A stretch of DNA of 64,000 nt from Deltaproteobacteria bacterium (GTDB lineage Bacteria; CG2-30-53-67): positions 2,166 through 66,165 of the forward strand of contig JAADIO010000032.1 of NCBI GenBank assembly GCA_013151235.1, read 5' to 3'. The notes below the pieces were generated by a model, which was not told the origin of the DNA, made no database searches, and saw nothing but the letters and a program-made list of their open reading frames with translations. Below, piece after piece: positions 21,402-44,232 of the stretch (the stretch's first letter is position 1; every line of letters starts with the position of its first letter). Position numbers and translations under genes: made by a program.

Positions 21402-22046
21402 TCAGGAGGAGGTCTTTGTGGACCATTCTAATAGATAAGGATAGAATTTCAGAAGGAAATTTTGCAGGGTCCTCCATTGTTGTTCCGGTCTTTTCTCTAT
21501 CGGCATGGAAATCCGTACAAGCGCACCGTTGGTTCGGTTGTTCTGCAACGCGCGGCGGATCAGGTCAAACCGCTGGAGATACTCGTTTGCAATCACCCGG
21601 TTGTCCGCCTGGTACCAGTAGGCGACCAGCCGTTTGTCGGTGCCGTTTTCGATTATCATCCGGTTGATGTGAATCTTCCGGTCTCCAACCGGAACGGCAA
21701 CGACCTCCCTGCGAACCGGGGTCCAACCGCTGCCGGGATAACAGTGTAGGGGGGAGTGGATCTGTGTGCCGTTCTGCTGGGTTCGGTAGTAGCCGATGTA
21801 GAGCCAGATCGTTTGACCGTCGAGGGTATGGTAGGCCCGGTTCAGAATTGCATCGGCGCCGAGTTTTTTTAGGACGGCCGGTTTTAGGGGGATCTCTTCG
21901 CTCTGCCATTTACCGATCCGGTCCGGGAAGGTTGAAAAATTCCGGACGAGCGGAACCGGGATGGGGTGAGAAAGGGACCGACTGTAGAAAAAGACCCCGA
22001 TCAGCAGGATGAAAATCACCGAGAAATAGAGGTTGGATTTTTTCAT
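21402..22046 (-). CDS. EpsI-family exosortase-associated protein
   Basis: 214 aa. N-terminal TM anchor, then the IHSPLHCYPGSGW motif typical of EpsI. ATGA overlap with the exosortase stop. Confidence 0.8.
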   Translation of the reverse strand: MKKSNLYFSVIFILLIGVFFYSRSLSHPIPVPLVRNFSTFPDRIGKWQSEEIPLKPAVLKKLGADAILNRAYHTLDGQTIWLYIGYYRTQQNGTQIHSPLHCYPGSGWTPVRREVVAVPVGDRKIHINRMIIENGTDKRLVAYWYQADNRVIANEYLQRFDLIRRALQNNRTNGALVRISMPIEKRPEQQWRTLQNFLLKFYPYLLEWSTKTSS

Positions 22047-22963
22047 GATGGTTTCACCTGCTCCGGGTGTGCCGGCCGCCGATGAAACGCCTGCAGGAGT
22101 TCATTCACCCCGAATATGAGAAGCGTAGCGGTCGTATAGACCACGATCCCGGAGGTTTCGTGGAGGAATCCCTGAGCCGTGTCGGGTCCTTTGTAAACGG
22201 CGAGAAGGGCCGTGACGACAAGGCGGAGAATGTTGCTGATCACGGCTATGGGGAAGATAGCGACAACCAGGAGAGCCCGGGGAAGGAAGCGTTGCTGGGC
22301 GATGTAGGTGAAGGCGATCCCGAAGGTGAGAAGTGAGGTCAGGGAGCGCAGTCCGCTGCAGGCATCGGCGACCTCCAGGGTGGTGTTCGGAAGATAAATG
22401 ATGTTTCCTTCATGGTGGACGGTAATGTGAAGAAGGTCAATAGTGAACACCGCCCATTTCGTAGCGAAGAGTTTCATGGGGGATGCGATGGCGTAATAGA
22501 GAATGTACGGCAAGGGGATCATCAGCAGGAGATAGAGGATCGGGAATACAATCGTCTTGCTCCCTTTCTTCCCCCACATGGTCAGGAGGATTCCAAGCAG
22601 AACAATGATGAAAGAAATCCGTGTGGTAAAAAGTTCATTCCCTGCGATGCCGATCAGGTAGGTTGTAAATCCGAACAGAACGACGAACAGCCCCGGGCCG
22701 TAAGGTTCCGGCTGAATTCGTGAGATTTTTTTTCTTTTACGCCAGACGAGAAATGCCGAGATGAGAGGAACAAAGATTCCGTAACCGTAGTTCGGGTCCT
22801 GATTCCAGTCCCGCCAGAGTTCCGGAAATACGGGCGCATATAGAACAAGCAAACCGAAGCCCAGAAGGCTGAGTTGCAACGGAAAGATTTTCCGGGAGGG
22901 CGATATCTTGTCTGTCTGTACGTGCTCTGTGGCCTTCATACAGCTCCGCCCTCTCGGTTCCAT
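22043..22963 (-). CDS. Exosortase (EpsH/Xrt family transpeptidase)
   Basis: Polytopic membrane protein with the catalytic-Cys motif DACSGLRSLTSLL. It is followed by EpsI, and a PEP-CTERM substrate lies in the window. The start could instead be the internal MKATEH. Confidence 0.85.
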   Translation of the reverse strand: MEPRGRSCMKATEHVQTDKISPSRKIFPLQLSLLGFGLLVLYAPVFPELWRDWNQDPNYGYGIFVPLISAFLVWRKRKKISRIQPEPYGPGLFVVLFGFTTYLIGIAGNELFTTRISFIIVLLGILLTMWGKKGSKTIVFPILYLLLMIPLPYILYYAIASPMKLFATKWAVFTIDLLHITVHHEGNIIYLPNTTLEVADACSGLRSLTSLLTFGIAFTYIAQQRFLPRALLVVAIFPIAVISNILRLVVTALLAVYKGPDTAQGFLHETSGIVVYTTATLLIFGVNELLQAFHRRPAHPEQVKPS

Positions 22964-24167: not shown

Positions 24168-24391
24168 GAATTAATATTCCGCCCGGGTAGGGGTTGTGCT
24201 CAAGTTTCCGGGTTGCTGAGCCGATAAGAGAGATACTCAGTCGAAAAATGATGGAAGTCTATAGGAATCTTCACTGGAAATCTACGAAGTCAAGGGATCC
24301 TGCCCTATGGCTTCCGAACTCTTTCGGTTGTGCGGCAGGTCTAATAATCCCGGCTCATGATGGAGCCCGGGAAAATCAACGGAGGTGTACA

Positions 24392-25006
24392 ATGAAAAGA
24401 TTGGGAAGAACATCAGGTTTTACCCTGATCGAGATTATCGTGGTCATTGCCGTCATCGCGATCCTGGCGGCAATCATGACCCCCTCGATCATCAAAAATA
24501 TCGATGATTCCAGAATCGCACGGGCCAAGAACGATGTCCAGGTCCTGGGAGCGTCCGTTGCCGATTTCTACAAGGATACGGGAAAATGGCCGACCGATAA
24601 TGACCCGAGCGCCGGGAACAGTAACTATCTTTATGTGTTGGAGACTGTCGGCGGGACCACCCCCAGTCACAGTGGAACGGATACCAACGGCTGGACCACA
24701 TGGGGGGCCGCACGACGTGACACCTTTGAGAACCAGTTGGTTCTGAACGATCCGAAGGGAGGCGGCAATGCCTATCCGACGACCGGCGAGTTCCGATGGA
24801 AGGGACCCTATATTAACGAGATCAAGAGCGATCCGTGGGGGAACAAATACTACTGTAACGTAATCGGGCTCTGGTACGGCAGGGGCTACGAAGCCGTCTT
24901 TGTCCTTTCCGCCGGTCCCGACGGGGTCATCAATACCGATGTAAAACAGCTTATTTCTTCCAGTCCGACGCTGGGGGGGGACGATATCGGTTTCCGAATA
25001 AAATGA
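24392..25006 (+). CDS. Prepilin-type (GspG-like) pseudopilin/pilin
   Basis: MKRLGRTSG/FTLIEIIVVIAVIAILAAI is a class III signal with a conserved Glu at +5. IARAKNDVQ...GPYINEIKSDPWGNKYY...SAGPDG resembles GspG. Start set at the MKRL ATG (24392). Confidence 0.8.
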   Translation: MKRLGRTSGFTLIEIIVVIAVIAILAAIMTPSIIKNIDDSRIARAKNDVQVLGASVADFYKDTGKWPTDNDPSAGNSNYLYVLETVGGTTPSHSGTDTNGWTTWGAARRDTFENQLVLNDPKGGGNAYPTTGEFRWKGPYINEIKSDPWGNKYYCNVIGLWYGRGYEAVFVLSAGPDGVINTDVKQLISSSPTLGGDDIGFRIK

Positions 25007-25097
25007 TGTGATCGTTTCATGAGGATAAGCTGTTCCTGCTGACCATTGCACCGGGTCCGATTTTTACCATCGGTCACGGGATGAAAGGTTCCTTCTG

Positions 25098-26768
25098 ATG
25101 CCGGTAAGTACACCTCCGAAAACCCGTCCTTTAGGGGAACGTCTGATTGATGCGGGGCTTTTAACCTCCGAGCAGCTTCGCATCGCGCTGAAGGAACAGA
25201 AACGAACGAAAGAGATGCTGGGCCGGATCCTGGTCCGGCTGGGATTTACCACACAGGAGCAGATCGAGGCGGCCCTGGCGCAGGAGTCGGGGACCGTTCA
25301 GAAAAATCTCGAATTTGTCGAGATTGATCTTGATGCCGTCAAACTGATCAATGAGGAGACGGCCCGGAAATACAAACTGATTCCGGTCTCCCGGGAGGGA
25401 GAGGTGCTGACGGTTGCCATGGTCGACACCTTTGACGTGGTGGCCATTGACGAAGTCCAGAACGAGTCAGGTCTTGATGTGAACGTGATTGCCGCCTCGG
25501 AGAAGGATGTCCTGGAGGCGATCAACAAGTATTGCGGATTTTCCGGGTCCATCGATGAAGTGGTCGATCAGGCCCTTGCCGAGGGGCTGGGGCGTGATCG
25601 GGCCGACCAGGAGGCCCAGGAGGCTCCGATCATCCGCCTGGTCAATCAGTTGATCCTTCGCGGGATTAATGAAGCGGCAACGGATATTCACTTCGAACCG
25701 GACGAAAAGGTCCTGCGGATTCGTTACCGTCTGGACGGGGCCTTGCAGCAGGGGTTTCTCCTGCCCAAGCAGTTGCAGCCTTCGGTCATTGCCCGGATCA
25801 AAATCCTGGCCGACCTGAACATTGCTGAATCGCGCATCCCCCAGGACGGCAAGATCCGTTTTCAAATCGGGAAGAAAGATATCGATCTCCGTGTTTCCAC
25901 CCTTCCGACCATTTACGGGGAGAACGTGGTGATGCGGATTCTCGACAAGTCAAAGGTCCTTCTGGGGCTGGAGGACCTCGGTTTTTCCCCGCAGAATCTC
26001 GAGATTTTCACCGAGATGATTCAGCGCCCTCACGGGATCATTCTCGTCACCGGGCCCACCGGATCGGGCAAGACGACGACGCTCTACACGGCTCTTTCCC
26101 ATATCAACTCTCTGGACAAGAAGATCTGCACCCTGGAGGATCCTGTGGAATATCAGCTCTCGGTGATTCGTCAGACCCAGATTAATGAAGAGATCGGTAT
26201 GACCTTTGCCGCCGGTCTGCGCTCCTTGTTACGACAGGACCCCGATGTGATTCTTGTGGGAGAGATGCGGGATACGGAAACCGCGGAGATGGCCATCCGG
26301 GCGGCCCTGACCGGACACCTGGTCTTTTCCACCCTTCATACCAACGATGCCGCCGGCGCTCTGCCGCGGTTGATCGATATGGGGCTGGACCCTTATCTCC
26401 TGGCCTCTTCCATCATCATGGTCCTGGCCCAGCGGCTGGTCCGAAAGATCTGCCCCGACTGCAAGGAGGCCTATACGGTCCCTGCCGAAGAACTGCGGGC
26501 TCTTGGACTGGCCGAGATGGAAGGGTTTTCCTTCTACAGGGGGGCGGGCTGCGATAAGTGTAATCAGTCCGGCTATCGGGGGCGGGCGGCCATTTATGAA
26601 CTTCTTCCGGTGGATCACACCGTTCATGATCTGATTCTGCAAGGGGCTTCCTCCGTCGAGATTCAGAAATCTGCGATGTCACAGGGGATGACGACCATGC
26701 GGAACGACGGATTCAAAAAAGTAGTGGTCGGTTTGACGACCCTCGACGAAGTGATGCGCCTGACGTAA
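25098..26768 (+). CDS. GspE/PilB/MshE-family secretion ATPase with N-terminal MshEN c-di-GMP-binding domain
   Basis: 556 aa. Walker A GPTGSGKTTT, Asp box, Walker B ILVGEMRD and a tetracysteine motif (CPDC...CDKC). The N-terminal tandem 24-residue MshEN motifs are described in the findings. Confidence 0.9.
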   Translation: MPVSTPPKTRPLGERLIDAGLLTSEQLRIALKEQKRTKEMLGRILVRLGFTTQEQIEAALAQESGTVQKNLEFVEIDLDAVKLINEETARKYKLIPVSREGEVLTVAMVDTFDVVAIDEVQNESGLDVNVIAASEKDVLEAINKYCGFSGSIDEVVDQALAEGLGRDRADQEAQEAPIIRLVNQLILRGINEAATDIHFEPDEKVLRIRYRLDGALQQGFLLPKQLQPSVIARIKILADLNIAESRIPQDGKIRFQIGKKDIDLRVSTLPTIYGENVVMRILDKSKVLLGLEDLGFSPQNLEIFTEMIQRPHGIILVTGPTGSGKTTTLYTALSHINSLDKKICTLEDPVEYQLSVIRQTQINEEIGMTFAAGLRSLLRQDPDVILVGEMRDTETAEMAIRAALTGHLVFSTLHTNDAAGALPRLIDMGLDPYLLASSIIMVLAQRLVRKICPDCKEAYTVPAEELRALGLAEMEGFSFYRGAGCDKCNQSGYRGRAAIYELLPVDHTVHDLILQGASSVEIQKSAMSQGMTTMRNDGFKKVVVGLTTLDEVMRLT

Positions 26769-26784
26769 TTCCCGGGGACAGGCA

Positions 26785-27984
26785 ATGCCCGAATATACCT
26801 ATAAAGCGAGAAATACGGAAGGCAAACTGATCAACGGTGTGATGGCTGCGGTCAACCCGGAGGATCTCTATGCAAAGCTGTCCGGGATCGGCTGTTATCC
26901 CACCGGTTTCGAGATCCGGAAGAATGTCTCCCTCGGGGTGAGGAAAAGGGTCTCACGGCGGGATCTGATTACTTTCACGGTTCATCTCGGAACCATCCTT
27001 GCCTCGGGGATCCCGATCCTCACCGGCCTGAAGGACCTGCTGGAGCAGACCGAGGTCGGGTTTTTCCGTCAGGTCATTGAAGACATCCATCGGAATATCG
27101 AGGCCGGTCTTTCCCTCTCGGCCGCGATGGCGGAGTACCCGCAGGTCTTTTCCGAACTGTATGTGGCCATGGTTTCCGCCGGGGAGAGTACCGGGAAAAT
27201 GGAGGAAACCTTCCAGAGTCTGACCTCCTATCTGGAGTGGCAGGAGGACCTGATGGGGCAGATCAAGCAGGCGACCCTTTATCCCATTGTTGTTTTCTGG
27301 GCCATCGTTGGGCTGGTGGCCCTGATCTTTACCGTGGTCCTGCCGAAATTTCTCGTTATCTTTGAAAAGAGCCATGTGGCGCTCCCCCTTCCGACCCGGA
27401 TCATTATTTCGATCAGTCATTTCATGCTCCACTCCTGGCCGATGCTGCTGTGCGGGATCTTTCTCTTTTTCCTGGCGCTGCGCTTCATCAAAGGGATTCC
27501 CGCCACCCGGATCGCCTATGACCGGCTCAAATTGATGATCCCAGTTTTCGGGGCCTTAAGTCACAAGATTATCCTGGCCCGGTTTGCGCATACCTTCAGT
27601 TCCCTGTACCGTTCCGGCGTCAATATTATTCATGTTCTGGAATTGATGGAGAAAACAACGGGCAACCGGGTTTTTGAAAGAGCGGTCGTGGAGATCCGCC
27701 AGAGGGTTCAGGAAGGACGGGGTGTTGCCGAGACGATGCGGGAGACGGGGCTCTTTCCTCCCCTGTTCGTTCGGATGGTTTCCATCGGGGAAGAGACAGG
27801 AAGCCTTGATTTTACCCTGGAGAAACTGAGCGGTTTTTACGACCGTGAGGTTCCGATGACCGTTAAAAAGGTCTTCGGTATCATGGAACCGTTGATCATT
27901 GTGATTTTGGGGGGAATCGTGGGGACGGTGGCCATGTCGGTTTTTCTGCCCCTCTACAAGATGATGAGTGTGGCCGGAGGTTAA
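26785..27984 (+). CDS. GspF/PilC/MshG-family inner-membrane platform protein
   Basis: 399 aa. Two repeated T2SS_F domains and 3 TM segments, positioned immediately after the ATPase. Confidence 0.9.
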   Translation: MPEYTYKARNTEGKLINGVMAAVNPEDLYAKLSGIGCYPTGFEIRKNVSLGVRKRVSRRDLITFTVHLGTILASGIPILTGLKDLLEQTEVGFFRQVIEDIHRNIEAGLSLSAAMAEYPQVFSELYVAMVSAGESTGKMEETFQSLTSYLEWQEDLMGQIKQATLYPIVVFWAIVGLVALIFTVVLPKFLVIFEKSHVALPLPTRIIISISHFMLHSWPMLLCGIFLFFLALRFIKGIPATRIAYDRLKLMIPVFGALSHKIILARFAHTFSSLYRSGVNIIHVLELMEKTTGNRVFERAVVEIRQRVQEGRGVAETMRETGLFPPLFVRMVSIGEETGSLDFTLEKLSGFYDREVPMTVKKVFGIMEPLIIVILGGIVGTVAMSVFLPLYKMMSVAGG

Positions 27985-27987
27985 ACG

Positions 27988-29577
27988 GTGGTTTTTTTTT
28001 CATCCAGATTGGTTGTCGGCATGGAGATCAGCGGGAACGTCATTCGTCTGGCTCTGCTCCGGCGCTTGCGAAAAAAAGATTCTCTGGAGGGGCTGATTCG
28101 ACTGGAAGCACCGTCCGACAATATCGAGGATGTCCGCCGGACGCTCACCGATGGTGTCCGCCGGAACGGTCTGACGGGAACGCCCGCAGCCATGATTCTC
28201 CAGGACCCCCGCATCCTGCACCGGGCTTTCGCCTTGCCGAAGATGTCGCAGAAAGAGATTGATGCTGTCGTTCCCTTTGAAGCACGAAAGGCCTTCGGGG
28301 TCAGGCGGGACTTCCGGATCGTTTACCATGTACATACCCGTTATCGGGAAGAAGGGGTCCCGAAGATTGAGGTCCTTGCCGCTGCGGTCCCGGGGGAGAT
28401 CGTGCAGAATGCCCTCGATCTGATTCGGGCCGCCGATCTGGTCCCGTACTATCTCATGTCCCTTCCATTTGTACAGTCGCAGCTACCTTCAGCCGCTCTG
28501 ATCTCGGAAACGGAGGAGACGGTGGCTCATCTCCATATCACCCGTATGGGGGTCGATCTGACGGTAACCCGGGGGGGGCATTTTCTCTTTTCCCGCTTGA
28601 TCCGAAAGGAGATCGACTTTTCCCGATTTGATATGACGCCGATGTCGGCGGAACCGGCCTCTTTTGAGAACGACGGCATGGAAATTCTCTCTATTGCCGA
28701 GGAGACGACCGGTGAAAAGGACGATCCTTTCGAACGTCTCTGTACGGAAATCAATCGATCCTTCCTCTATGTCAAACAACAGAACAAGGAGTCCGTAAAG
28801 CGGATTCGGCTGACCGGGGAAGGAAAAAGATTCCCGAACCTGGTGGAGCAGTTGCAACATCACTTAAAACTTCCGCTGACCGTCCTTGAAAATTTGCCGG
28901 GGCTGGATCGGCCGGTCATCTGTACGCCGGCAGCGGGAGAGGAGGGGGAATACGATCTTTGCGTGGCGGTGGCCAAAACCCCCTCGATCTTTTCCACGGC
29001 CAATCTCCTGCCGGAAGAGGAGCAGCTTGAATGGAAAAAGCGATCCGCCCAACGGATTGCAAAGGTTGCCTACATGGTGACGTCGGTCCTGGTCCTGTTT
29101 CTTTATGTGCAGCTTTCCTATCATGTGTATCATGATCAAGTGGAGGCACGGAGATTGCGGCAGGGATATGCCCGGGTGGATCACCGGTTTGAAGGGGTGC
29201 GCCGCACACTTCAGGTTCAATCCGACCGCCTGTTGAGGCGGGCGCTCTGCCGGGGACTCACTTCGGCATCCATTCCTCCGGAGGATGTTCTGGCGGCACT
29301 TGCCCTCTATGCGCCGGATACCGTTGTCCTGAAGCAGTTGGTGGTGCAAGGGGGAAGCCGACCCTTTTTCATGAGGCTGTCGGGAAGGATCGTCCTGCCC
29401 GATTATTCCGGTGGGGAGAAAGAACTGGATCACTTTTTGAATCAATGTAAAAAGACGGGTTTATTCAAGACCGTCCGGGGACGAATCGGTGCCGCTGCGG
29501 ATCAGGGGGAATCGGGACGGGTACAAGTTGCCTCCGTCGGCCGGAGGCGGATCCCGATCGAAATCGAAGGAGAATGA
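27988..29577 (+). CDS. PilM-PilN fusion (MshI-like) assembly protein
   Basis: 529 aa. An N-terminal actin-like region of ~330 aa, a single TM segment (AYMVTSVLVLFLYVQLSY), then a PilN-like periplasmic tail. GTG start. Confidence 0.6.
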   Translation: MVFFSSRLVVGMEISGNVIRLALLRRLRKKDSLEGLIRLEAPSDNIEDVRRTLTDGVRRNGLTGTPAAMILQDPRILHRAFALPKMSQKEIDAVVPFEARKAFGVRRDFRIVYHVHTRYREEGVPKIEVLAAAVPGEIVQNALDLIRAADLVPYYLMSLPFVQSQLPSAALISETEETVAHLHITRMGVDLTVTRGGHFLFSRLIRKEIDFSRFDMTPMSAEPASFENDGMEILSIAEETTGEKDDPFERLCTEINRSFLYVKQQNKESVKRIRLTGEGKRFPNLVEQLQHHLKLPLTVLENLPGLDRPVICTPAAGEEGEYDLCVAVAKTPSIFSTANLLPEEEQLEWKKRSAQRIAKVAYMVTSVLVLFLYVQLSYHVYHDQVEARRLRQGYARVDHRFEGVRRTLQVQSDRLLRRALCRGLTSASIPPEDVLAALALYAPDTVVLKQLVVQGGSRPFFMRLSGRIVLPDYSGGEKELDHFLNQCKKTGLFKTVRGRIGAAADQGESGRVQVASVGRRRIPIEIEGE

Positions 29578-29581
29578 CCCC

Positions 29582-30214
29582 ATGGAACGACTCCCCGGGG
29601 TGAAACGATTTTTGAAGACCCACCAGAACTGGGTGCAGATGACCCTTCCAGGGCTGGTGATTGCGGGGCTGGTCCTGGTTCTGATCGTTCCGAAGGTCAG
29701 GCAGTGGTATGCCCTGCAGCAGGAGATTGGAAAGGTGGGCAGGCAAATGGAACGAGTCTCGATGGATTTGGCTTCTCTCCCGCCGGAGCGGCTTCAGCGC
29801 CTTGCCCGGGCCGATGCGGACGATCGGGAACGGCTGCCCGGCCGGGGTCGGTTCTACACCTACCTGGGGCACCTCCGGGAACTGGGCCGCTCCCTGGGGA
29901 TTGATGAGATCACTTATTTTCGGGGTGCAGTGGAACGGGTCGACATGGATGAGATTCTGGCTCGTTCGACCTTCAATGAGTTGCCCATCTCTCTGGATCC
30001 GGACTCGAATGTCTTGTATGGCATTCCCGTGAAGATCCAGTTTCAGGCCCCCTACCGGACCCTCTATCGGTTTCTGAGGTCGCTCCGGGGAGGAAAACGG
30101 TTGACCGATATCCGGGAAGTGCGGGTCAAAAAAAAATCCGGATCTCTTGCGGTGGAGATGAAGATGGAACTCTATTATCTTGTGAAAAATTCGGGAAGAA
30201 AAGATGCTGCGTAA
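29582..30214 (+). CDS. PilO/MshJ-like assembly protein
   Basis: 210 aa. One N-terminal TM segment, a coiled-coil segment (QWYALQQEIGKVGRQMERV) and a periplasmic domain. Called from position and topology only. AAGGAGAA Shine-Dalgarno upstream of the ATG at 29582. Confidence 0.4.
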   Translation: MERLPGVKRFLKTHQNWVQMTLPGLVIAGLVLVLIVPKVRQWYALQQEIGKVGRQMERVSMDLASLPPERLQRLARADADDRERLPGRGRFYTYLGHLRELGRSLGIDEITYFRGAVERVDMDEILARSTFNELPISLDPDSNVLYGIPVKIQFQAPYRTLYRFLRSLRGGKRLTDIREVRVKKKSGSLAVEMKMELYYLVKNSGRKDAA

Positions 30215-30677
30215 CAAGGTCTTCTTCCTGCTCCTGATCGTGTCGGTGTTCTTCGCCGTTTACCGGAATTATACCTTTTTCCGCAAACGGTTCCATGCCA
30301 TGACACCGTCGGCGATGGCCTCTCTGCCGGTTTCGCCGGATCGGGTGCCGGGGGAGAAGAAAGAAGACAAAGTCGATGGACTCTCCACCGCCGACCGGCT
30401 CCGGTTTGCGGCGGGCGCAGGCCGGGACCCTTTTGTCCTTCCTGGAGGAGAGACTTTCGCTGTGCCGCAAGTGTCGTCGAAAACGAACCGGTTGCCCCGC
30501 CTGAACGCTGTTCTGTGGAGCCGGGGACGTCGGGTTGCCTTGTTGGATGGGGAGATCCATCAGGAAGGGGAGAATATCTCCGGACACAGGATCCTCCGGA
30601 TTGAGCCGGATCGGGTGATCCTGGCCGGTGGGGGAGGCGAGGTGATGATCGAGCTGAAAAAGGGGGAAACCCCCTGA
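30204..30677 (+). CDS. PilP/MshK-like small periplasmic protein
   Basis: 157 aa. N-terminal TM/signal anchor. The C-terminal beta-rich segment (VALLDGEIHQEGENISGHRILRIEPDRVIL) is typical of PilP/GspC HR-type domains that contact secretins. Confidence 0.35.
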   Translation: MLRNKVFFLLLIVSVFFAVYRNYTFFRKRFHAMTPSAMASLPVSPDRVPGEKKEDKVDGLSTADRLRFAAGAGRDPFVLPGGETFAVPQVSSKTNRLPRLNAVLWSRGRRVALLDGEIHQEGENISGHRILRIEPDRVILAGGGGEVMIELKKGETP

Positions 30678-30696
30678 ACACAAAGGAGGAAATCTT

Positions 30697-32283
30697 TTGA
30701 AAAATATCCGTATCATCCTGCCGGGGCTTTTGCTCCTCATCCTCTGGGGATGTGCCGCCGGGAGCAAGACGATCGCAAAGCCGGCGCTTCCGGAACAATA
30801 TACGCCGAAACCTTCCGTGCAGTCGGCCCCTCCGGGGGCCGAGTATCTCCTCCCGCAGATGGCCGGAAAGGAGTCGATCAAGGGAATCGACGGAGAGCGG
30901 TTCTCCATCGCCGTGCAGGATACAAAGCTCAAGGATGTTCTCATGGTTCTGGCCCGGGGCAGCCGTTATAATATGATCGTCGATCCCGCCATCAATGAAT
31001 CCGTTACCATTGACCTGAAAAAGATGACCATGGGAGAGGCCCTGCAGGCGATTCTTTCTCCTCTGCACCTGCAGTACACGATTCGTGGGAACACGATTGA
31101 AGTTCTCCGCCCCCGAATGTCGACCCGCGTCTTCACCCTGAATTATATTACCGCCAGCCGGACCGGTGAAACCGGGTTGATTGTCAGCAGCGGTGGGAGA
31201 GGCGGGGAAAAGAGCTCCGCCGGGGACTACGGTACCGTAAAGTCGACGAACAAGGTGGACCTCTGGGCGGAGATCCGCAAAGGCCTGAACAGCATCCTTT
31301 TCGGTGGCGGCGGAGAGAATGGGAGTGGTCATCAGGAAGAGCGGCTGGTGATCAACGAGCATTCCGGGACCATTCTGGTCACGGCCCTGCCGGCGAAACT
31401 GATGGAGATCGCCGATTTTCTGGAGCGCGTCGAAGGATCGATCCAGCGGCAGGTAATGATCCAGGCCAAGATTATCGAAGTGACCCTTTCCGACGGATTC
31501 AAGGCGGGAATCGACTGGGCGGGGATTCCCAATTTGCGGGGCTCCTTCGTGGGGAACCTTACCTCGGGATTGGCTGCTGCACAACCCCTTCCCGCTTCCG
31601 TGGTACAGCATTTGAGTCCGGGTACCGGCAACTTCCAGATCGGCGCCACCAAGGGGGATATCTCCATTCTCCTCGACATGATCGCCACCCAGGGGAAGGT
31701 TCATGTCCTCTCCAGTCCGAGGATCTCGACCCTGAACAACCAGAAGGCGATTATCAAGGCGGGGCGGGAGGACACCTTCTTCACCGTGAACAAGGAAACA
31801 AATACCGAGGGAGGCGTCCTGCAGGAAAATTTCAATGTCGACCGGGAGGACTACACCATCGGCGTGGTCCTTGATGTGACGCCCCAGATCTCATCCGATG
31901 GGACGATCATCATGAATATTCATCCCAGCATCACCGATTTTGTTGAGGAAAAGACCTTCCCTCCGGGGGCTGTAGGGGTTGACATCTTGGCCAATGCGCC
32001 CGTTCTTGATGTCCGGGAAGTCGACACCATGGTCCGAGTCAAGGACGGCGAGACGATTGTGATTGCCGGTCTGATGCAGGAAAAGACCGAGGAATCGACG
32101 ACGTCCGTTCCGGTCCTGGGGGATATCCCGGTGTTCGGAAAACTGTTCCGGCGGGTGGAGAAGAAAAAGGAAAACACGGAACTGGTGATCCTGTTGCAGC
32201 CGGTTGTTGCCGTCGGCAGAAGCCCGGAAGCTGTCTCCTTTTCCTCTGGTGGGACACCTCCTTTGACTCTGAGGCAACCATGA
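30697..32283 (+). CDS. Secretin (MshL/PilQ/GspD family), lipoprotein-type
   Basis: 528 aa. Lipobox LLILWGC, N-domains, and a C-terminal secretin core (VPVLGDIPVFGKLFR...ELVILLQPVV). TTG start 6 nt after AAGGAGGA. Confidence 0.85.
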   Translation: MKNIRIILPGLLLLILWGCAAGSKTIAKPALPEQYTPKPSVQSAPPGAEYLLPQMAGKESIKGIDGERFSIAVQDTKLKDVLMVLARGSRYNMIVDPAINESVTIDLKKMTMGEALQAILSPLHLQYTIRGNTIEVLRPRMSTRVFTLNYITASRTGETGLIVSSGGRGGEKSSAGDYGTVKSTNKVDLWAEIRKGLNSILFGGGGENGSGHQEERLVINEHSGTILVTALPAKLMEIADFLERVEGSIQRQVMIQAKIIEVTLSDGFKAGIDWAGIPNLRGSFVGNLTSGLAAAQPLPASVVQHLSPGTGNFQIGATKGDISILLDMIATQGKVHVLSSPRISTLNNQKAIIKAGREDTFFTVNKETNTEGGVLQENFNVDREDYTIGVVLDVTPQISSDGTIIMNIHPSITDFVEEKTFPPGAVGVDILANAPVLDVREVDTMVRVKDGETIVIAGLMQEKTEESTTSVPVLGDIPVFGKLFRRVEKKKENTELVILLQPVVAVGRSPEAVSFSSGGTPPLTLRQP

Positions 32284-33248
32284 ATACCGGAGAATCAACG
32301 AGGGAACGGCGGGAAGGAGAAGGAGCCGGGTTGCACCTCTTCATGAACCGGAAAAGAATCCGGGGCTATGGCAGTCTCGCGCTGATGTTTCTCTTTGTCA
32401 TTGTCAGCCTGAAACTTCTCTTTCCGCCTGTGCCGGTAGGGGCTCTCGTGACGACAAACGAGCCCCTCATCCCGACGAAACCGCCGGTACAAAAAGGGGG
32501 AAAAAGGATAGACATCCCTGTGGCGGAACACCCGAAAATCGTCCGGAGAAAGCTGCCCGGGGAGTTCGCTCCTCCGGAAAAGGCGGAAGTCGGGCAGATC
32601 ACCATCTTGTCCCCGAAGCAGGCTGAAGTGAATGAGAAGACCTCCCGTAAGCTGATGGAACTTTCCACCTTTAATGAAGGAGTGGACGCGTTGGCGAGCG
32701 GAAACTACCTGGAGGCGGTGCTGAACTTCAACCGGACCCTCTCCGTTAACCCTCTCAATGTCCGGGCCTGTAACAATCTCGGGCTGGCCTTGATGGAAAC
32801 GGGAAAGGGGAAAGCCGCTGAAGAGGCCTTCCGCAAGGGGCTCGTCATCGACCCCGGGGATGTACGGTGCCTGAACAATCTTGCCCTCCTCTATATCCAA
32901 AGAGGAGAACCTGCCCGATCCCTCCCCTTGCTGGAGCGAATTGTTAAAGACCATCCGGGAGATGCCGTTGCCTGGACCAACCTGGGGGTGGCTGAAGGAA
33001 GAACAGGGAAAGCGGCTGCCGCCGAGACCGCCTACCGCCGGGCACTGAAACTGACCCCCGGGGATTACCGGGTCCATTTCAATCTTGCCCGAACCCTTGA
33101 AAAGGAGGGGCGGCTTATCGAAGCGATCTACTATTATCGGGCCTGTTTGCGGTTCCTTCCTTCGGCGGAAACCGGTCGGGCCCGGAAGGTGATCGCTCAT
33201 CTGAAACAACTCCGGTCATCCCTCACCATTCCCGCCGTCCGGAAGTAA
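32280..33248 (+). CDS. TPR-repeat protein (MshN-like position)
   Basis: 322 aa. N-terminal TM anchor, then several TPR units (AVLNFNRTLSVNPLNVRACNNLG..., AEEAFRKGLVIDPGD..., AETAYRRALKLTPGD...). ATGA overlap with the secretin stop. Confidence 0.75.
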   Translation: MNTGESTRERREGEGAGLHLFMNRKRIRGYGSLALMFLFVIVSLKLLFPPVPVGALVTTNEPLIPTKPPVQKGGKRIDIPVAEHPKIVRRKLPGEFAPPEKAEVGQITILSPKQAEVNEKTSRKLMELSTFNEGVDALASGNYLEAVLNFNRTLSVNPLNVRACNNLGLALMETGKGKAAEEAFRKGLVIDPGDVRCLNNLALLYIQRGEPARSLPLLERIVKDHPGDAVAWTNLGVAEGRTGKAAAAETAYRRALKLTPGDYRVHFNLARTLEKEGRLIEAIYYYRACLRFLPSAETGRARKVIAHLKQLRSSLTIPAVRK

Positions 33249-33468
33249 TTCTGCACATAAATGGTTGCAATCATTCACTGTAGGATTTCTTTTCAATCAT
33301 AACCTGCTGATTATAAAGAATTTTACGGTGAGACCCCGATTTTTCTCCCCAATCTGTCGGTTTTTCGTACAGGTTCCCCTTTGGTAGGGATGGGATCTGC
33401 GGCATTTGCCCTTTATCCATGCCGTAAATGTTCTGCAAAATGAATAGGTTACTGTAATATATTAATAT

Positions 33469-33484
33469 TGGCATCGATTATGCA
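33469..33484 (+). promoter_or_regulatory. Sigma-54 (-24/-12) promoter candidate upstream of the PEP-CTERM gene
   Basis: TGGCATcgattaTGCA, with GG and GC separated by the canonical 10 nt. It lies 73 nt upstream of the ATG at 33557. Confidence 0.6.
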
Positions 33485-33556
33485 TTCATGCTATGCAGTT
33501 ATTGATTACTGCATTTTATATGGCTTGTTTGAAAAAATATTAAGGAGGTACGGATC

Positions 33557-34150
33557 ATGATCAAGAAAATGTGGAAAATTACGATGGTTGCCTTCCTCGG
33601 GGTTTTATTCTTGGCGCCGGATCTTTTCGCTTTCCCGGTGCTGGGATATGTCGATCCTGGTTTCGGTTCTGGCTATTCCTTGTCGACGACAAAGGTCGGG
33701 ACGGCCACTTACACATTCAAAAATCTTGTCTCCGGATCAAACCTGAATCTTCAGTCGATTTCTCTGGATTTTGAGAAAGATGTTTTTGACATGGACAACA
33801 CCTCTCCTGTGTCGGGAAGCCTTCCTCCGGGCTGGTACTTTGCTCCTCCTATAGACCTTGGAACATATTCTTTTCAGATTACATTTACGCCCGGATTTGG
33901 AATACCGGAAGGCGGAGAGCTTTCATTCCAGATGGATTATACACTATGGGATGATGCCCTTTCCCTGGATTGGGACGAAGGGGGATACTGGGAACAAGGC
34001 TTCGGAGTGAAATATACAGGTGTGCATTTGCTTGTACCCGGCGGTTCAACTGCTCCCGTCCCGGAACCTGCGACCATGCTCTTGTTCGGGATCAGTCTCA
34101 TCACCGTTGCCGGGTATGGAAGGCATCGTATGAACCGTAACAACAGTTAG
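33557..34150 (+). CDS. PEP-CTERM sorting-domain secreted protein (exosortase substrate)
   Basis: Signal peptide MIKKMWKITMVAFLGVLFLAPDLFA. C-terminal VPEPATMLLFGISLITVAGYGRHRMNR gives the PEP motif, a TM helix and a basic tail. Strong TAAGGAGGT Shine-Dalgarno. Confidence 0.85.
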   Translation: MIKKMWKITMVAFLGVLFLAPDLFAFPVLGYVDPGFGSGYSLSTTKVGTATYTFKNLVSGSNLNLQSISLDFEKDVFDMDNTSPVSGSLPPGWYFAPPIDLGTYSFQITFTPGFGIPEGGELSFQMDYTLWDDALSLDWDEGGYWEQGFGVKYTGVHLLVPGGSTAPVPEPATMLLFGISLITVAGYGRHRMNRNNS

Positions 34151-34185
34151 GGTGCGATTTAAAAGAGAATAAGGGGCTTTTCGGG

Positions 34186-34224
34186 AAGGCGTTTACAGTG
34201 ATTGTAAGCGCCTTTTTCTTGTTT
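34186..34224 (+). terminator. Rho-independent terminator after the PEP-CTERM gene
   Basis: AAGGCGTTTACA-gtgat-TGTAAGCGCCTT (12-bp stem with one mismatch), followed by TTTTCTTGTTT. Confidence 0.7.
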
Positions 34225-34345
34225 GCCCGGCATGGTGGTAAACCCGGTTCCGGTAACCGGGACGTGACCCTGACCAGGGGAAAGACAACCGGAATCGCAA
34301 GGGAATTGCCGGCAACGGCTGGGTCTGGAGGAAGCGATAGGATGT
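34225..34345 (+). other. Candidate structured leader RNA of unknown class
   Basis: GC-rich segment with nested helices (CGGTT-ccggt-AACCG; CCGGAAT-cgcaaggga-ATTgCCGG; GACCC...GGGTC). It sits between a terminator and a GGAGGAAG Shine-Dalgarno. It resembles GEMM-I strings (GGTAAACC...GGACGTGACCC) only partially. Confidence 0.25.
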
Positions 34346-34347
34346 GA

Positions 34348-34860
34348 GTGATACATATGGACTTGATCCGGCGTCCTGGGAGGGCAAGCGTGCAAGAGAT
34401 CACGAAGTCCGATCGCTGCTTGAATTTTTTTTCCGGTTGTGATAGAAAATGCGACATGGGGGGATCTTCAAGACCGCTGACAGGACTGATGAGCTGGGAA
34501 CGGGTGGATGAACTGATTAAGCAGATCAGGTCCATAGGTCCCTGGTATATCTTTTCTCCCGCGGAAGGGGTTGATTCACTCTTTGAAGCAGGGGGGGAGG
34601 AGGCCTCTCGTTTTCTCGTCGCCCGTACGGAGGAGTTGAAAGCTCGTCCCTATGGTCCCGGATGGGTCTACGTTCATTCCCCCGATGCCCCCTCTTGGAT
34701 CAAGATCTACGATCCCTGCAAATGCGGTTCTTCCTGCAGTATCACAACTCCCCCTGCTTGGTGGGAGATGGATTTGATCGATCCTGCGGATCGAATCGCC
34801 CCCGAGAATTCTTCGATGGAAGAAAAGAAGTTCCTTCTGCACTTTTTTAAGGGCAAATGA
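34348..34860 (+). CDS. Hypothetical protein (no family recognised)
   Basis: 170-aa ORF with a GTG start. Its real start could be an internal Met. It has no TM or signal sequence and contains a CKCGSSC segment. Confidence 0.35.
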   Translation: MIHMDLIRRPGRASVQEITKSDRCLNFFSGCDRKCDMGGSSRPLTGLMSWERVDELIKQIRSIGPWYIFSPAEGVDSLFEAGGEEASRFLVARTEELKARPYGPGWVYVHSPDAPSWIKIYDPCKCGSSCSITTPPAWWEMDLIDPADRIAPENSSMEEKKFLLHFFKGK

Positions 34861-34972
34861 CACGCACCCGGGGGAAATCACGCACCTCCTGAGATTCCTC
34901 CTGCCGGTTTTTCCACATTCGACCTTCTTGCAACATCTGTGTTTGCGGCATGGTATGAAAAAAACTTCTCAA

Positions 34973-35014
34973 ATTGGGAATTTTTTTTCCTATATTGGGA
35001 AAAAATTTTCCAAT
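34973..35014. promoter_or_regulatory. Candidate enhancer (UAS) for the downstream sigma-54 promoter
   Basis: ATTGGGAAttttttttcctatATTGGGAAAAAATTTTCCAAT. This is a direct repeat of ATTGGGAA plus a near-palindrome, 105-146 bp upstream of the -24 element at 35120. Confidence 0.35.
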
Positions 35015-35118
35015 TCACAGATCGAAAATATCCAGAATAGAGCATAATCCATCCATATACCAGTAAAAACAGTCCTAATTATCTGTTTTTTGAGGGTATA
35101 TCCAAGTAATTGTGATTA

Positions 35119-35134
35119 TGGCATCGTATTTGCT
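35119..35134 (+). promoter_or_regulatory. Sigma-54 (-24/-12) promoter
   Basis: TGGCATcgtatTTGCT is a near-consensus match to TGGCAC-N5-TTGCW. It lies 54 nt upstream of the ORF starting at 35188. Confidence 0.7.
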
Positions 35135-35187
35135 GTTATCGAGTATGGGAAGGGATGTTTCAGTGAGAAGAAAGGGGTGGTGTCGTC

Positions 35188-35634
35188 TTGAAGGAGCAAA
35201 CCGAGAACCGACAAACGAATCGAGATCGACGCCGGAAACCGACGCCGATTTTCAGTCGGCATACCTTTTTCGGTCGCAGGAAATTGAACCGTCGAAGCTC
35301 CGACAGACATTACAATTACTATGTTGATTTATACAGTGCCCGCCTTTTTCTCATCCTCCTTCTGATTGTCATCATGTCTCTCCTCGATGCCGGTTATACC
35401 TACCGGTATATCTCGATGGGCGGCAAGGAGCTGAACCCGGTCATGGACTATTTTCTGAGCCGGGGAGTTTTCTCCTTTTTTTCTTACAAGTTCGTGATGA
35501 CGGCTATCGGGGTTTTCGTCCTCTGTCTCCATAAGAACTTCCTCTTTGCCCGGAACATGATTTCCGTGATCCTGGTCAGTTATATCCTCCTCATGTTCTA
35601 CCATGTCTCCATTCTCTACGCTACGCTTCAATAA
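35188..35634 (+). CDS. Small membrane protein with Arg-rich N-terminus (DUF5658-like)
   Basis: 148 aa with a TTG start. The N-terminal NRQTNRDRRRKPTPIFSRHTFFGRRKLNRRSSDR is followed by 3-4 TM helices. Confidence 0.5.
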   Translation: MKEQTENRQTNRDRRRKPTPIFSRHTFFGRRKLNRRSSDRHYNYYVDLYSARLFLILLLIVIMSLLDAGYTYRYISMGGKELNPVMDYFLSRGVFSFFSYKFVMTAIGVFVLCLHKNFLFARNMISVILVSYILLMFYHVSILYATLQ

Positions 35635-35785
35635 AGGCAGAGGCACAGAGTTCAAAGGCAAACGTGGTCGCCACCCATCAAGATTGATACTGTGCACTAA
35701 TTATAATCCCCCTTTTCAATATGATTAAGAATTTCCAGTTCCCCGATCCCCAATCTCTGTCAAGGTCTGCTATCCAAAGATCTTC

Positions 35786-35814
35786 TTGACGGGCTCGGGA
35801 AGTTCAACTATAGT
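35786..35814 (+). promoter_or_regulatory. Sigma-70-type promoter candidate for the PilZ gene
   Basis: TTGACG, a 17-nt spacer, then TATAGT. It lies ~20 nt upstream of the TTG start at 35835. Confidence 0.5.
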
Positions 35815-35834
35815 AAAGTTCCCGGAAAGGATTT

Positions 35835-36542
35835 TTGAGCCCTTTTCCTGCCGTTTTTTCCCAATTGCAGGTCGTTTCCATGGAGTCCTTTACAAATATC
35901 GTCAAAAAGATCGATTCGGTCCTTTCGGTGAATCAGAATATTGAGATCACTTTTGACCATCCCGATTTCATGGTGGAATACAAAAGCCGGGTGGAGAGCA
36001 TTCTGACCGACGGCATTGCCGTGGCTCCACCCACACGCAGGTGTATTGACGTCGGTACCTCCTGCTGGGTCTATTTTTTGACCAAGGGACAACGCTACGG
36101 CTTTTCAAGCCGGGTGAGAGGCTATGGAAAGGAGCGGGTCGTCCTGTTGCTCCTAGCCCGCCCCCAGGAGATCCTGCGCCTTCAGCGGAGAAAATATTTC
36201 CGTGTTCCCGTCGAGATCCCTGTCGATTTCCAGGTACGGGAAGAAACAGAGACGTCTCTCCTGTCCGGTGTGATCCGCAACATCAGTTCCGGTGGTGTTC
36301 TCCTGATAGTCTCCCGGGATGTAGTTCCAGTGGGCAAAGAACTGCGGCTGCGTTTTACCCTGAGTTCCGAGATTTCCCTTACGGAGATTCCGGGAAAAAT
36401 CGTCCGTGTGGAAGAGGCGAAGAACGGAAAGAAATATGAATACGGTGTGGAGTTCATTGATGTCCATAATCGTCTCCGGGATATCATCATGCGTTTTGTT
36501 TTTAACCGCGAAATTGAGTTGAACCGTTTGAGGCGGAGATAA
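35835..36542 (+). CDS. PilZ-domain c-di-GMP receptor (YcgR-like two-domain architecture)
   Basis: 235 aa. QRRKYFRVPV (RxxxR) and RNISSGGVLL ([D/N]xSxxG) motifs in the C-terminal half, with a YcgR-N-like domain before them. The start is ambiguous (TTG at 35835 or ATG at 35880). Confidence 0.8.
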   Translation: MSPFPAVFSQLQVVSMESFTNIVKKIDSVLSVNQNIEITFDHPDFMVEYKSRVESILTDGIAVAPPTRRCIDVGTSCWVYFLTKGQRYGFSSRVRGYGKERVVLLLLARPQEILRLQRRKYFRVPVEIPVDFQVREETETSLLSGVIRNISSGGVLLIVSRDVVPVGKELRLRFTLSSEISLTEIPGKIVRVEEAKNGKKYEYGVEFIDVHNRLRDIIMRFVFNREIELNRLRRR

Positions 36543-41679: not shown

Positions 41680-44232
41680 GTGTTGCGGAAACTTGAAGTT
41701 TGGCGGGTCGCCCTGTATACTCGGATTATGGGGTTGACAATGCACCATCAGTCGGGCCGGCTTCTGGAGATCCTGGACAGTCTGAATATTCCGCTCCTTC
41801 TTCTGGATTCCTCCGGCAAAGTGAAGTCCCACAACGGTATGGTCGAGGAGATCTTCGGGTATTCCTCCGCCGATCTGATCGGTCTTCCCTCGAATAACCT
41901 GATTGCACGATTCATAGCGTCCGAAAGTCCGGTCGGCGTCTCCTCTTCGTCCCCCGATCCTTTCCATGCAGATCTTTCTTCCCCCCTGCAACGGGAGGTG
42001 ACCTGCCGGAGAAAAAACGGTGGGGAATTCCCCGCACAGGTGACTTTCATCCCCTGGGGGGACGGGACCTTCCGGTTGATGGCGGTTCAGGATGTCTCCG
42101 GTCAACGGCGTCTGGAACAGCGTGCCACCCAGCGGACCAAGGAACTGACTCTCTTTAATACCTTCGCAGAGATCTTAAGCCGCGGTGGAAAACCCCGCGC
42201 GCTCCTGCAGGAGACCGTCGATATGCTTCCCGGGATCTTGGGGATTAAGGCCGCGATGATTCACCTACAGGATCAAGAGACCGGGAATCTTGTCCCCGCG
42301 GCCCGGCAGGGATTTGACGCTTCCTTTCTGGCTTCGGTAGGGGAGGTGGAACCGGGACAGGGGTTGTTCGGGAAGGTCCTGACCTCCGGGCTGCCTCTCC
42401 TCGTGGAGAAGGCCTCCGAGGATCCCCGAACGCTCAATTTTGATCTGCATCAGAGCGGTCTTCAAAGCTTTGCCTCCGTACCGGTTTCTTCAAAAGGCGC
42501 CGTCCGGGGGGTCCTGACCGTGGCGAGCCGGCGGGTCTCCTCTTTTACCGCCATGGACATGCAACTTCTTGATGCCCTCGGGAGCCAGTTGGGGATCGCC
42601 ATTGAGAATGCGGAACTGATTGCCCAGCTCAAAGAGAAGATGAACCAGATCGCCCTGACCAATGAATTGAGCGGGACGATCAATTCCAGCCTGAGTATCG
42701 GCACGATCTTCCGGATGATGGTTTCGGAAATCCGGAAGTTGATTGAATACGACCGTGCCGGCCTCTTGCTCTACGATGAGAAGAAGGGGAACCTGTTGAT
42801 CTTCGCCCTCGATACGGGGCTGAAGACGGAGATGACCCGGGGGGTTAAGGCACCCATCGAGGGGACCTCGGCCGGTTGGGCCTTAAAGCATAACCGGCCA
42901 TGGATCAATCGGGACCTGCTCTCGGAGATGCTCTTCCCGCTAGACGGAAAGCTGCGCGACGAGGGGATTCGCTCGACTATCAGCATTCCTTTGACCCAGG
43001 AGAAGAGGCTCGGCGTATTCAACCTCGATAGTCGGGAGGCGGCAAAGTATTCGGAAACGGATCTGCAGATCCTTCTGCCGGTGGCGAAACAGATCTCCAT
43101 CGCGCTGGAGAATGCCCTCCTCTTCGAGGAGATCTCGAGGGAAAAGAAGGAGTGGGAGAAGACCTTTGATGCATTTACGGACATGGTTTGGATCGACGAT
43201 CATCGTCAGCGGATCCTTCGGGCGAATCAAGCCCTGCTCCAGGGGGCAGAGGTGACCATGGCGGGGCTTTCGGACCTCCATTGCGCGAATCTGCTCGACC
43301 GGCTCGGCGTCGGTCCTTCCTGTCTGTGCTGCGAGACCGTAACCACGCAGCGCCAGACCTTCCGGGAGGTTCATGGGCGAGAGGGAAAGATCTTCCATTT
43401 CTGGGCTTATCCTCTCCTCGACGATGAGGGACAGCTCTATGCCGTCCTTCACTATCTCAAGGATGTGACGGAACGCAAAAGGCTGGAACAGCAGCTTCTC
43501 CGGGCGGACAAGCTTGCTTCCCTGGTGACGCTGGTGGCGGGAATCGCTCATGAGATCAACAACCCGCTCGGGATTATCGCCGGTTATGCCGAGGCCCTCC
43601 TTGATCGTGCCGGAGATCCTGCTCTTCGGGGGATGGAAGCCTTTGAGGATTTTCCCGAGTATCTGGATACCATCCACAAGGAGATCTTTCGCTGCAAGGA
43701 GACCCTGGGAAGTCTCCTGGAGTTTGCCCGGCCCCACGGGAGAAAGTCCCGGGAACTCGATATCAATGAACTGCTCAAAGAAGTGATCCTCCTGGTGAAT
43801 CACAAGGCCAAACGTCTTCACTGCCGGATTGAGCATCAGCTCAACCGGGAACTGCCGAAGATCTGTGCCGAACCGGGGAGTCTGCGACAACTCTTCATGA
43901 ATATCATCATTAATTCCCTCTACCATACGCCGGAAGGGGGAAAGATCGAGATTACGACGGAACTCAACCGGAACGATCCGAAAGAGATGATCCAGGTGGC
44001 GATTCGTGACACCGGTCCGGGGATCCGACACGAGGTGATCGACAAGATTTTTGATCCCTTCTTTACGACCAAACCGGTCGGGGAGGGGACCGGATTGGGG
44101 CTTTCCATCTGTCACAAAATTGCAGAGGAACACAACGGGGTGATCGATGTCGAAAGTGAGGTCGGCCGCGGCACGACCTTCTTTATCAAGCTGCCTGCGA
44201 AAGGGAACCATGGCCCGGATACTTGTCGTTGA
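41680..44232 (+). CDS. Cytoplasmic multi-sensor histidine kinase (PAS-GAF-GAF-PAS-HisKA-HATPase)
   Basis: 850 aa with no TM segments. H-box [12 protein letters not shown]-box [11 protein letters not shown] and G-boxes [15 protein letters not shown]. Two GAF-like regions. One PAS domain carries an H-C-x13-C-x-C-C cluster. Confidence 0.85.

Follow-up and report, generated by a model that had tools for sequence, protein, structure and literature searches.

The described systems closest to the locus analysed here are those in which genes of PEP-CTERM proteins stand under sigma-54 control. Haft et al. reported in 2006 that proteobacterial PEP-CTERM genes are preceded by a 17-nt motif (motif 1, the PEP-CTERM box), which has the 3' end TTTACA and is sometimes repeated, and by a second motif of 17 nt (motif 2) with the -24 GG and -12 GC doublets, the start codon lying on average 71 nt further downstream (PMC1569441). 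Motif 1 and motif 2 were separated by a mean of 62.8 nt (range 32–92 nt over 99 sites), and the genes formed single-gene PEP-CTERM operons with long upstream regions (PMC1569441). The phylogenetic profile of the DNA motif led the same authors to PrsR (TIGR02915), PrsK (TIGR02916) and PrsT (TIGR02917), and the assignment of PrsR to the PEP-CTERM box rests on this phylogenetic profile and on gene linkage (PMC1569441). For pepA of Aquincola tertiaricarbonis RN12, a PEP-CTERM gene that adjoins prsT, published experiments have established the transcription start and the dependence on RpoN1; a previously predicted enhancer sequence was reported upstream of the mapped promoter, while complementation of the Aquincola prsK-prsR pair failed (PMC9850573).

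The locus described below lies in a window of 64,000 nucleotides, by which we mean the whole stretch of DNA that was analysed. Its layout also recalls the NifA-dependent nif promoters, which combine a sigma-54 promoter with an IHF site and a UAS of the form TGT-N10-ACA.

The PEP-CTERM gene and its promoter

The only PEP-CTERM open reading frame in the window encodes NOY53172.1, a protein with a signal peptide, a conserved domain of approx. 140 aa and the sorting tail VPEPATMLLFGISLITVAGYGRHR (VPEP...GYGRHR). The original prediction placed a sigma-54 promoter in front of this gene, at 33469–33484, and in this it was borne out, as the element has the exact GG/GC spacing, stands 73 nt before the ATG at 33557 and is conserved in six other lineages. 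The features of the predicted transcription unit are:

33469..33484, plus strand: sigma-54 -24/-12 element TGGCATCGATTATGCA (GG at 33470–71, GC at 33482–83; exact spacing)
33542..33548, plus strand: ribosome-binding site AAGGAGG, 8 nt 5' of the ATG
33557..34150, plus strand: gene of the PEP-CTERM protein NOY53172.1, 197 aa (Pfam PF07589)
34183..34227, plus strand: intrinsic terminator with a stem of 16 pairs and a T-run after it

The element lies in sense orientation in non-coding DNA and agrees with the sigma-54 consensus at 9 of the 11 specified positions (TGGCAC-N5-TTGCW context, with the GG and GC doublets 10 nt apart). A two-strand scan of the window found only 11 sites as good as this one per 128 kb, the background density of sites of equal quality being 0.04 per 500 nt of one strand. 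Three of the 11 (33469, 35119 and 45679) are on the plus strand, at or just 5' of the starts of plus-strand open reading frames. To see how such an element fares at related genes, the contigs of the PEP-CTERM homologues (n = 8, 37–61% identity, with the PEP tail invariant across them in alignment A2) were compared, and a further locus, L013, was added from a scan of species-representative genomes with the PrsR protein P0013. Every homologue with upstream DNA has a -24/-12 element 52–128 nt before the called start; it reads TGGCATTAATTATGCA in L001 and L002, TGGCACATCATTTGCA in L005 and L006, TGGCACTAATAGTGCA in L007, TGGCATGCCCGTTGCT in L008 and TGGTATGAAAATTGCT in L013, and T, GG, A and TGC are invariant in the aligned elements. 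Since sites of equal quality are so rare in the window, and yet one stands before every orthologous gene, the element at 33469 is well beyond what chance would give.

By the usual -12 convention, transcription of the PEP-CTERM gene would start at approx. 33495. The ribosome-binding site AAGGAGG is kept in most orthologues (alignment A1), and an Rfam search of 33200–35900 showed a leader without a riboswitch or known RNA. A hairpin at 33493–33514, at the predicted 5' end of the mRNA, was considered and set aside, as it is not a conserved aligned block in the orthologues. A sigma-70 scan upstream of the PEP-CTERM gene gave no credible promoter, the sole match overlapping the ribosome-binding site and the ATG. 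Because a strong terminator stands 3' of the gene, it probably forms a single-gene transcription unit. No terminator was predicted between the stop of the preceding TPR gene (33248) and the promoter, so some read-through transcription is possible.

The minus-strand part of the window from 14 to 24129 is an exopolysaccharide cluster that includes an exosortase, EpsI and an XrtA-type amidotransferase. It is followed by an MSHA-like secretion or pilus cluster (24194 to 32283), the TPR gene (32280–33248) and the PEP-CTERM gene. The exosortase and EpsI (21402–22963) are the presumed pair of enzymes that act on the PEP-CTERM tail in sorting:

22043..22963, minus strand: exosortase (TIGR02602, 189 bits; cut-off 105.6)
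21402..22046, minus strand: EpsI (TIGR02914, 149 bits; cut-off 42.8)

Neither prsK (TIGR02916) nor prsT (TIGR02917) was found within the window, where the TPR protein encoded at 32280–33248 reaches 67 bits on the PrsT model (cut-off 312), and rpoN is likewise absent within these 64 kb.

Two conserved boxes and two IHF-like sites

When the promoter regions are anchored at TGGCA, the alignment is gap-free over 200 nt, with both boxes in register and most of the intervening DNA divergent. The invariant columns are concentrated in the boxes, the IHF-like site and the -24/-12 element, and upstream of the promoter four blocks are conserved:

33279..33295, plus strand: distal PEP-CTERM box TGTAGGATTTCTTTTCA, 17 nt, its end 173 nt before the T of TGGCA
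33300..33312, minus strand: IHF-consensus-like site A, AATCAGCAGGTTA, with one mismatch to WATCAANNNNTTR, between both boxes
33355..33371, plus strand: proximal PEP-CTERM box TGTCGGTTTTTCGTACA, 17 nt, 97 nt before the T of TGGCA
33439..33451, plus strand: IHF-consensus-like site B, AATGAATAGGTTA, with one mismatch, just 5' of the -24 element

Scored with a matrix made from the other loci only, the distal box scores highest of all window positions, both strands included (23.7 bits), and the proximal box comes second (16.5 bits); in the control with 50 shuffles the highest score was 21.4 and the mean maximum 14.2. The invariant columns of the distal box are G17 T18 A19 ... T28 T29 C31 A32 (alignment A3), and its orthologous copies read TGTAGTGAATCTTTACA, TGTAGGTTTCCTTTACA and AGTAAGAAAAATTTACA. 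In the proximal box TGTCGG is invariant in 7 sequences, the orthologous copies being TGTCGGAATTCCATACA, TGTCGGATTTCCTTACA and TGTCGGATTTCTTTACA. The boxes of the window end in TTTTCA (distal) and CGTACA (proximal), each agreeing with TTTACA at 5/6, while the orthologous copies end in TTTACA itself.

The geometry is fixed as well. The spacer from box to promoter is 97 nt in the window and 97–98 nt in L001, L002 and L007 (the loci measured), and L005 and L006 have the same geometry in the anchored alignment, with a proximal box of 16 nt (dyad N10). The two boxes are 76 bp apart, with their centres approx. 132 and approx. 208 nt ahead of the start predicted at approx. 33495. As judged from this pattern of conservation, the conserved enhancer elements of the 33469 promoter are the two TGT-N11-ACA boxes, which are putative PrsR sites. 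Two other strings were tried as enhancer elements and rejected: the 16-nt string TGCCGGTTTTTCCACA at approx. 34901, a candidate third box serving the 35119 promoter, falls below the list of matrix matches, and TTCCCGCCGTCCGGAA at 33229, a candidate enhancer of the second class, falls inside the coding sequence of the TPR gene, has a high G+C content and belongs to a set of four matches in the window that chance would account for.

Site A recurs with 0–1 mismatch and in the same orientation at -169 to -173 in the window, L001, L002, L005, L006, L007 and L013, and its columns TAA...TGA are invariant in the alignment. Site B is found as a one-mismatch match on the plus strand at -30 to -32 in all 7 close sequences. 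Both would be DNA-bending sites of the IHF type.

The boxes among other PEP-CTERM genes

A metagenome scan with the PEP-CTERM alignment returned approx. 80 PEP-CTERM genes, mostly unrelated apart from the sorting tail, of which 65 had usable upstream DNA. Because these proteins share only the sorting tail, they are no orthologues and were used as an independent sample of PEP-CTERM genes. A sigma-54-like site was present upstream on the sense strand in 39 of the 65 and on the antisense strand in none (0/65), and TGT-N11-ACA occurred upstream of those sites 17 times (approx. 2.4 expected). The spacer has its mode at 62–63 nt (62–73 nt in the canonical examples), with boxes such as TGTCGGAAAATTTTACA, TGTCGAAAATCTTTACA and TGTCGGTTTTTTTTACA. 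The proximal box of the window matches the canonical boxes of such unrelated genes (e.g., TGTCGGAAAATTTTACA and TGTCGGTTTTTTTTACA), and by sequence the window's boxes fall within the PEP-CTERM box consensus.

PrsR as the probable activator

In the relatives, the PEP-CTERM gene has prs genes for neighbours. The order in L002 is PEP-CTERM gene, prsT (394 bits, cut-off 312) and prsR (563 bits), while in L005 (541 bits) and L013 (559 bits) prsR stands directly 5' of the boxes (cut-off 502.6), and in L013 prsT (342 bits) follows directly 3' of the PEP-CTERM gene. The PrsR proteins linked to these loci are 72–88% identical to one another and have in common the recognition-helix region GNISKAARELGISRVTLHDMLKKYG. 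No canonical PrsK was seen beside prsR in the relatives examined; beside prsR, L013 has a CheR-like gene and a gene for a 1036-aa kinase, and no TIGR02916 match was present among the 25 listed of the 35 family matches of this locus.

In the genome of the window, neither prsT nor prsR adjoins the PEP-CTERM gene. The original prediction was correct that sigma-54 control of PEP-CTERM genes is known for PrsK/PrsR systems (PMC1569441), and correct also that the only enhancer-binding protein of the window is not PrsR, since it scores 418 bits on TIGR02915 and the cut-off is 502.6. The puzzle that it implied, namely that a cognate regulator is missing and that a PAS/GAF kinase pair may have taken control, probably does not hold, because a bona fide PrsR is encoded in what is apparently the same genome. 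This protein, NOY53521.1 (P0013), which reaches 558 bits on TIGR02915, came up in a search with the PrsR of L002 and shares 88% identity with it. By accession it lies approx. 350 numbers from NOY53165.1, NOY53166.1 and NOY53172.1 of the window; its organism label and sources agree with theirs, the label given by NCBI being MAG Deltaproteobacteria bacterium. Going by the proximity of the accessions only, it would be encoded on another (52-kb) contig of the same genome, and with a PrsR so close in accession and under the same organism label the puzzle of the missing regulator would dissolve.

Comparison with the known systems

The likeness to the PEP-CTERM box/Prs system extends over the 17-nt TGT...TTTACA-type motif, here in two copies, with a sigma-54 motif downstream; the distance to the start codon (73 nt here, approx. 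71 nt as published); the single-gene operon with a long upstream region and with exosortase and exopolysaccharide genes nearby; and the prsR and prsT genes that adjoin the gene in relatives. There are also differences. The spacer of 97–98 nt is past the published maximum of 92, which is a descriptive statistic and not a definition; each box of the window is one base off TTTACA; prsR and prsT are not beside the gene in the window's genome; and the nearest relatives are labelled Nitrospirota, whereas the 2006 motif was found only in Proteobacteria. This label is carried by the closest relatives in GTDB representative genomes, including the nearest relatives of the PrsR. With pepA of A. tertiaricarbonis RN12 the locus shares a PEP-CTERM gene and a TGGCAC ... 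TGC -24/-12 promoter, although RpoN dependence and the start site are experimental there and sequence-based here, and the two proteins are alike only in the sorting tail (PMC9850573).

Since the enhancer appears to be the known PEP-CTERM box and not the string ATTGGGGA put forward in the original prediction (see below), the locus is best described as an ordinary, further example of the known design of PEP-CTERM box and sigma-54 promoter, and neither the long spacer nor the one-base departures of its boxes nor the Nitrospirota label of the nearest PrsR relatives alters its class. With the nif promoters it has in common a TGT...ACA dyad approx. 100–200 bp upstream, a bend of the IHF type in between and a -24/-12 promoter; unlike them, it has a dyad of N11 (N10 only in L005 and L006), its regulator would be a PrsR-family response regulator and not the GAF-domain NifA, and its target is a gene for a cell-surface protein.

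More could be made of the differences. There may be a lineage-specific, fixed PrsR enhancer (boxes 76 bp apart, a 97–98-nt spacer approx. 35 nt above the canonical 63, two IHF-type sites), combined with a rearrangement that parted the gene from prsT/prsR, and perhaps with a second input via the ATTGGGRA/TCCCCAATCT strings that are common to the DUF5658 and PilZ promoters; we find this combination rather unlikely.

It is also conceivable that the promoter and the boxes are real, but that the activator is another enhancer-binding protein and PrsR is linked to the gene for some other reason. Direct binding of PrsR to the box is not reported in PMC1569441 or PMC9850573, the spacer here is non-canonical, and in L008, the most distant homologue, a receiver-less enhancer-binding protein of 332 aa adjoins the gene in place of PrsR. 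Against this, L005 and L013 have prsR directly 5' of the gene and L002 has it two genes off, the box fits the published motif whose phylogenetic profile led to PrsR, and it is like the boxes before unrelated PEP-CTERM genes, so that we judge another activator to be quite unlikely.

The regulator encoded in the window and the ATTGGGRA string

The candidate that lies nearest is the only enhancer-binding protein of the window, an AtoC/NtrC-like regulator (44147–45574) downstream of a PAS/GAF kinase (41680–44232). This regulator could activate the promoter via ATTGGGRA strings common to several promoters of the window, and the original prediction had indeed taken one such string as the upstream activator motif:

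33346..33353, minus strand: string ATTGGGGA (TCCCCAAT on the plus strand), not conserved

Some observations are in line with such a role. The regulator has receiver, sigma-54-interaction and HTH_8 domains, there are 4–5 intergenic ATTGGGRA strings between 33346 and 35865, the 10-mer TCCCCAATCT is common to 33346 and 35747, and the window holds two more sigma-54-like sites, at 35119 and 45679. A metagenome scan with the DUF5658 protein of the window, whose promoter would be the one at 35119, found no relatives.

The string is present at 33346–33353, where it ends 2 nt before the proximal box, but as an activator motif it is neither conserved nor enriched. None of the 7 orthologous promoter regions contains ATTGGGGA or its 7-mer core, and no alignment column beneath the string is invariant. 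Of the related copies that had been listed, those at 34973 and 34994 (plus strand) and 35747 (minus strand) are confirmed, whereas 45621 reads CTTTGGGAAA and is no ATTGGGRA copy; a further copy at 35858 (minus strand) had been missed. The number of chance matches had been put at approx. 15, as though for a 7-mer; over the 8 positions that the motif really spans, the expectation is 3.7 by mononucleotide composition and 10.7 when dinucleotides are considered. As 11 matches were observed against these 10.7, there is no overall enrichment of ATTGGGRA in the window. In intergenic DNA of the window 4 were observed and 1.43 expected, with P = 0.057 for a post hoc comparison in which the motif was picked after seeing the sites. 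A regulatory role of ATTGGGGA is not supported by these comparisons.

The protein itself also differs from PrsR. It scores below the PrsR cut-off, its identity to the PrsR proteins linked to the orthologous loci is 39% overall and 31% within the DNA-binding region at the C-terminus, and where they have SRVTLHDMLKK in the recognition helix it has NRKTLYLKLRK. By its sequence it is a paralogue and most likely not the cognate activator, and control of the PEP-CTERM gene by this regulator seems to us very improbable.

Hardly any credence is due to the notion that the -24/-12 match is fortuitous and that the gene is reached by read-through from the secretion/TPR operon or has a sigma-70 promoter that escaped recognition, since, for all that no terminator is predicted between 33248 and the promoter and that the consensus agreement is 9/11, the element and its spacing to both boxes are conserved in seven lineages, no credible sigma-70 promoter was found, and the same elements stand in L005 and L013 despite a different upstream gene (prsR).

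Proposed mechanism and significance

The presence and conservation of the elements, their fixed geometry and the linkage to prsR and prsT in relatives are established here. The reading that we prefer, at a probability of roughly 85%, is that a PrsR-type, enhancer-dependent sigma-54 promoter drives a single-gene PEP-CTERM operon. Sigma-54 RNA polymerase would sit on TGGCAT-N5-ATGCA (33469–33484) as a closed complex, and phosphorylated PrsR, most probably NOY53521.1 from outside the window, would bind both 17-bp boxes. If IHF binds the IHF-like sites at 33300–33312 and 33439–33451, the bending of the DNA there would let the activator meet the polymerase across the 97-nt spacer, and ATP hydrolysis would open the promoter, with a start near 33495. 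The transcript would then have a leader of approx. 62 nt with a strong ribosome-binding site and would end at the terminator at 34183–34227, and the protein would be exported and handed over to the exosortase encoded 10 kb upstream.

The finding carries little conceptual novelty, and its practical value is that of a correct annotation, together with a caution against taking the enhancer-binding protein that lies nearest in the window for the cognate regulator. For an uncultured bacterium, it proposes the regulatory logic of the one PEP-CTERM gene of the locus, whose expression would be tight, enhancer-dependent and signal-controlled via PrsR. It also shows that the PEP-CTERM box design, described from Proteobacteria in 2006, has been retained, its geometry fixed, in a lineage for which the closest relatives in genome collections carry the label Nitrospirota.

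Further sigma-54-like sites in the window

Two more sigma-54-like elements were found in the window, the first of them with repeats upstream:

35119-35134, TGGCATCGTATTTGCT, another good sigma-54-like match, 54 nt upstream of ORF 35188-35634 (DUF5658)
34972-35012, tandem dyads TTGGGAATTTTTTTTCCTA and TTGGGAAAAAATTTTCCAA, 21 nt apart, approx. 110-145 nt upstream of the 35119 element
45679-45694, third sigma-54-like element, TGGCATGGGATTTGCT, directly past the NtrC-type regulator gene and within the longest reading of ORF 45663-46070

The box-matrix scan of the window placed no PrsR box (the TGT-N11-ACA enhancer element) near the 35119 element, and the tandem dyads look like an enhancer for an activator other than PrsR; the ATTGGGAA copies found at 34973 and 34994 are parts of these dyads. 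The upstream region of DUF5658 also contains a 12-13-mer, ATTGGGAAAAAA, with an inverted repeat copy at 35854-35866, before the PilZ gene. The 35119 and 45679 sites have TTATGGCAT-N5-TTTGCTGTT in common. If the 45679 element is used, the receiver-like ORF would have to take the in-frame ATG at 45708 as its start codon, and its transcript would be nearly leaderless.

Dyads at unrelated PEP-CTERM genes

Dyads were also present in the sample of unrelated metagenomic PEP-CTERM genes having a sigma-54-like site and lacking a PrsR box, upstream of the sigma-54-like sites; the loci concerned are L094, L098, L115, L120, L128 and L129, and also L092, L097, L100, L103, L108, L135 and L137. TTCC-N8-GGAA dyads (e.g., TTCCGAATTCCTGGAA) lie 83-149 nt upstream of these sites in six loci, where 0.15 would be expected, and TTTTCCGGAAAA-like palindromes were found in several further loci. 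Such dyads and palindromes may represent a second enhancer class, serving another activator of PEP-CTERM genes.

Surroundings of the PEP-CTERM gene

Two features were seen close to the PEP-CTERM gene, one where its mRNA is predicted to begin and one just 3' of its terminator:

33493-33514, 7-bp hairpin ATGCAGT-N8-ACTGCAT, followed by TTTAT, right at the predicted mRNA 5' end
34306-34457, match to Rfam RF02001 (group II intron D1-D4), 28.5 bits, E = 0.003, below the gathering score of 32

The hairpin was not seen as a conserved block of the orthologues in the promoter alignments. The RF02001 match occupies the exact site of prsT/prsR in relatives and overlaps ORF 34348-34860, for which the family search gave no match; it may be what is left of the rearrangement that moved the PEP-CTERM gene and its regulator apart, or may have matched by chance. 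In one relative (L013, 5790-9940), prsR is preceded by genes for a CheR-like methyltransferase and a 1036-aa histidine kinase, and the PrsK model TIGR02916 was not among the best 25 of 35 family matches there; no kinase gene adjoins prsR in relatives L002 and L005.

MSHA-like cluster and possible c-di-GMP control

In the window and in relatives L001 and L002 alike, the exosortase/EPS genes and the PEP-CTERM gene have a conserved MSHA-like secretion or pilus cluster between them:

24194-32283 (656-8571 in L001 and L002), pseudopilin, ATPase, GspF, PilM-like, GspB-like and MshL-like secretin (246 bits, cut-off 250)
35835-36542, PilZ protein, near the cluster

In the cluster ATPase, the N-terminal domain is of the c-di-GMP-binding MshE type (NF053729, 63.6 bits, cut-off 38), and this domain, together with the PilZ protein nearby, hints at export under c-di-GMP control.
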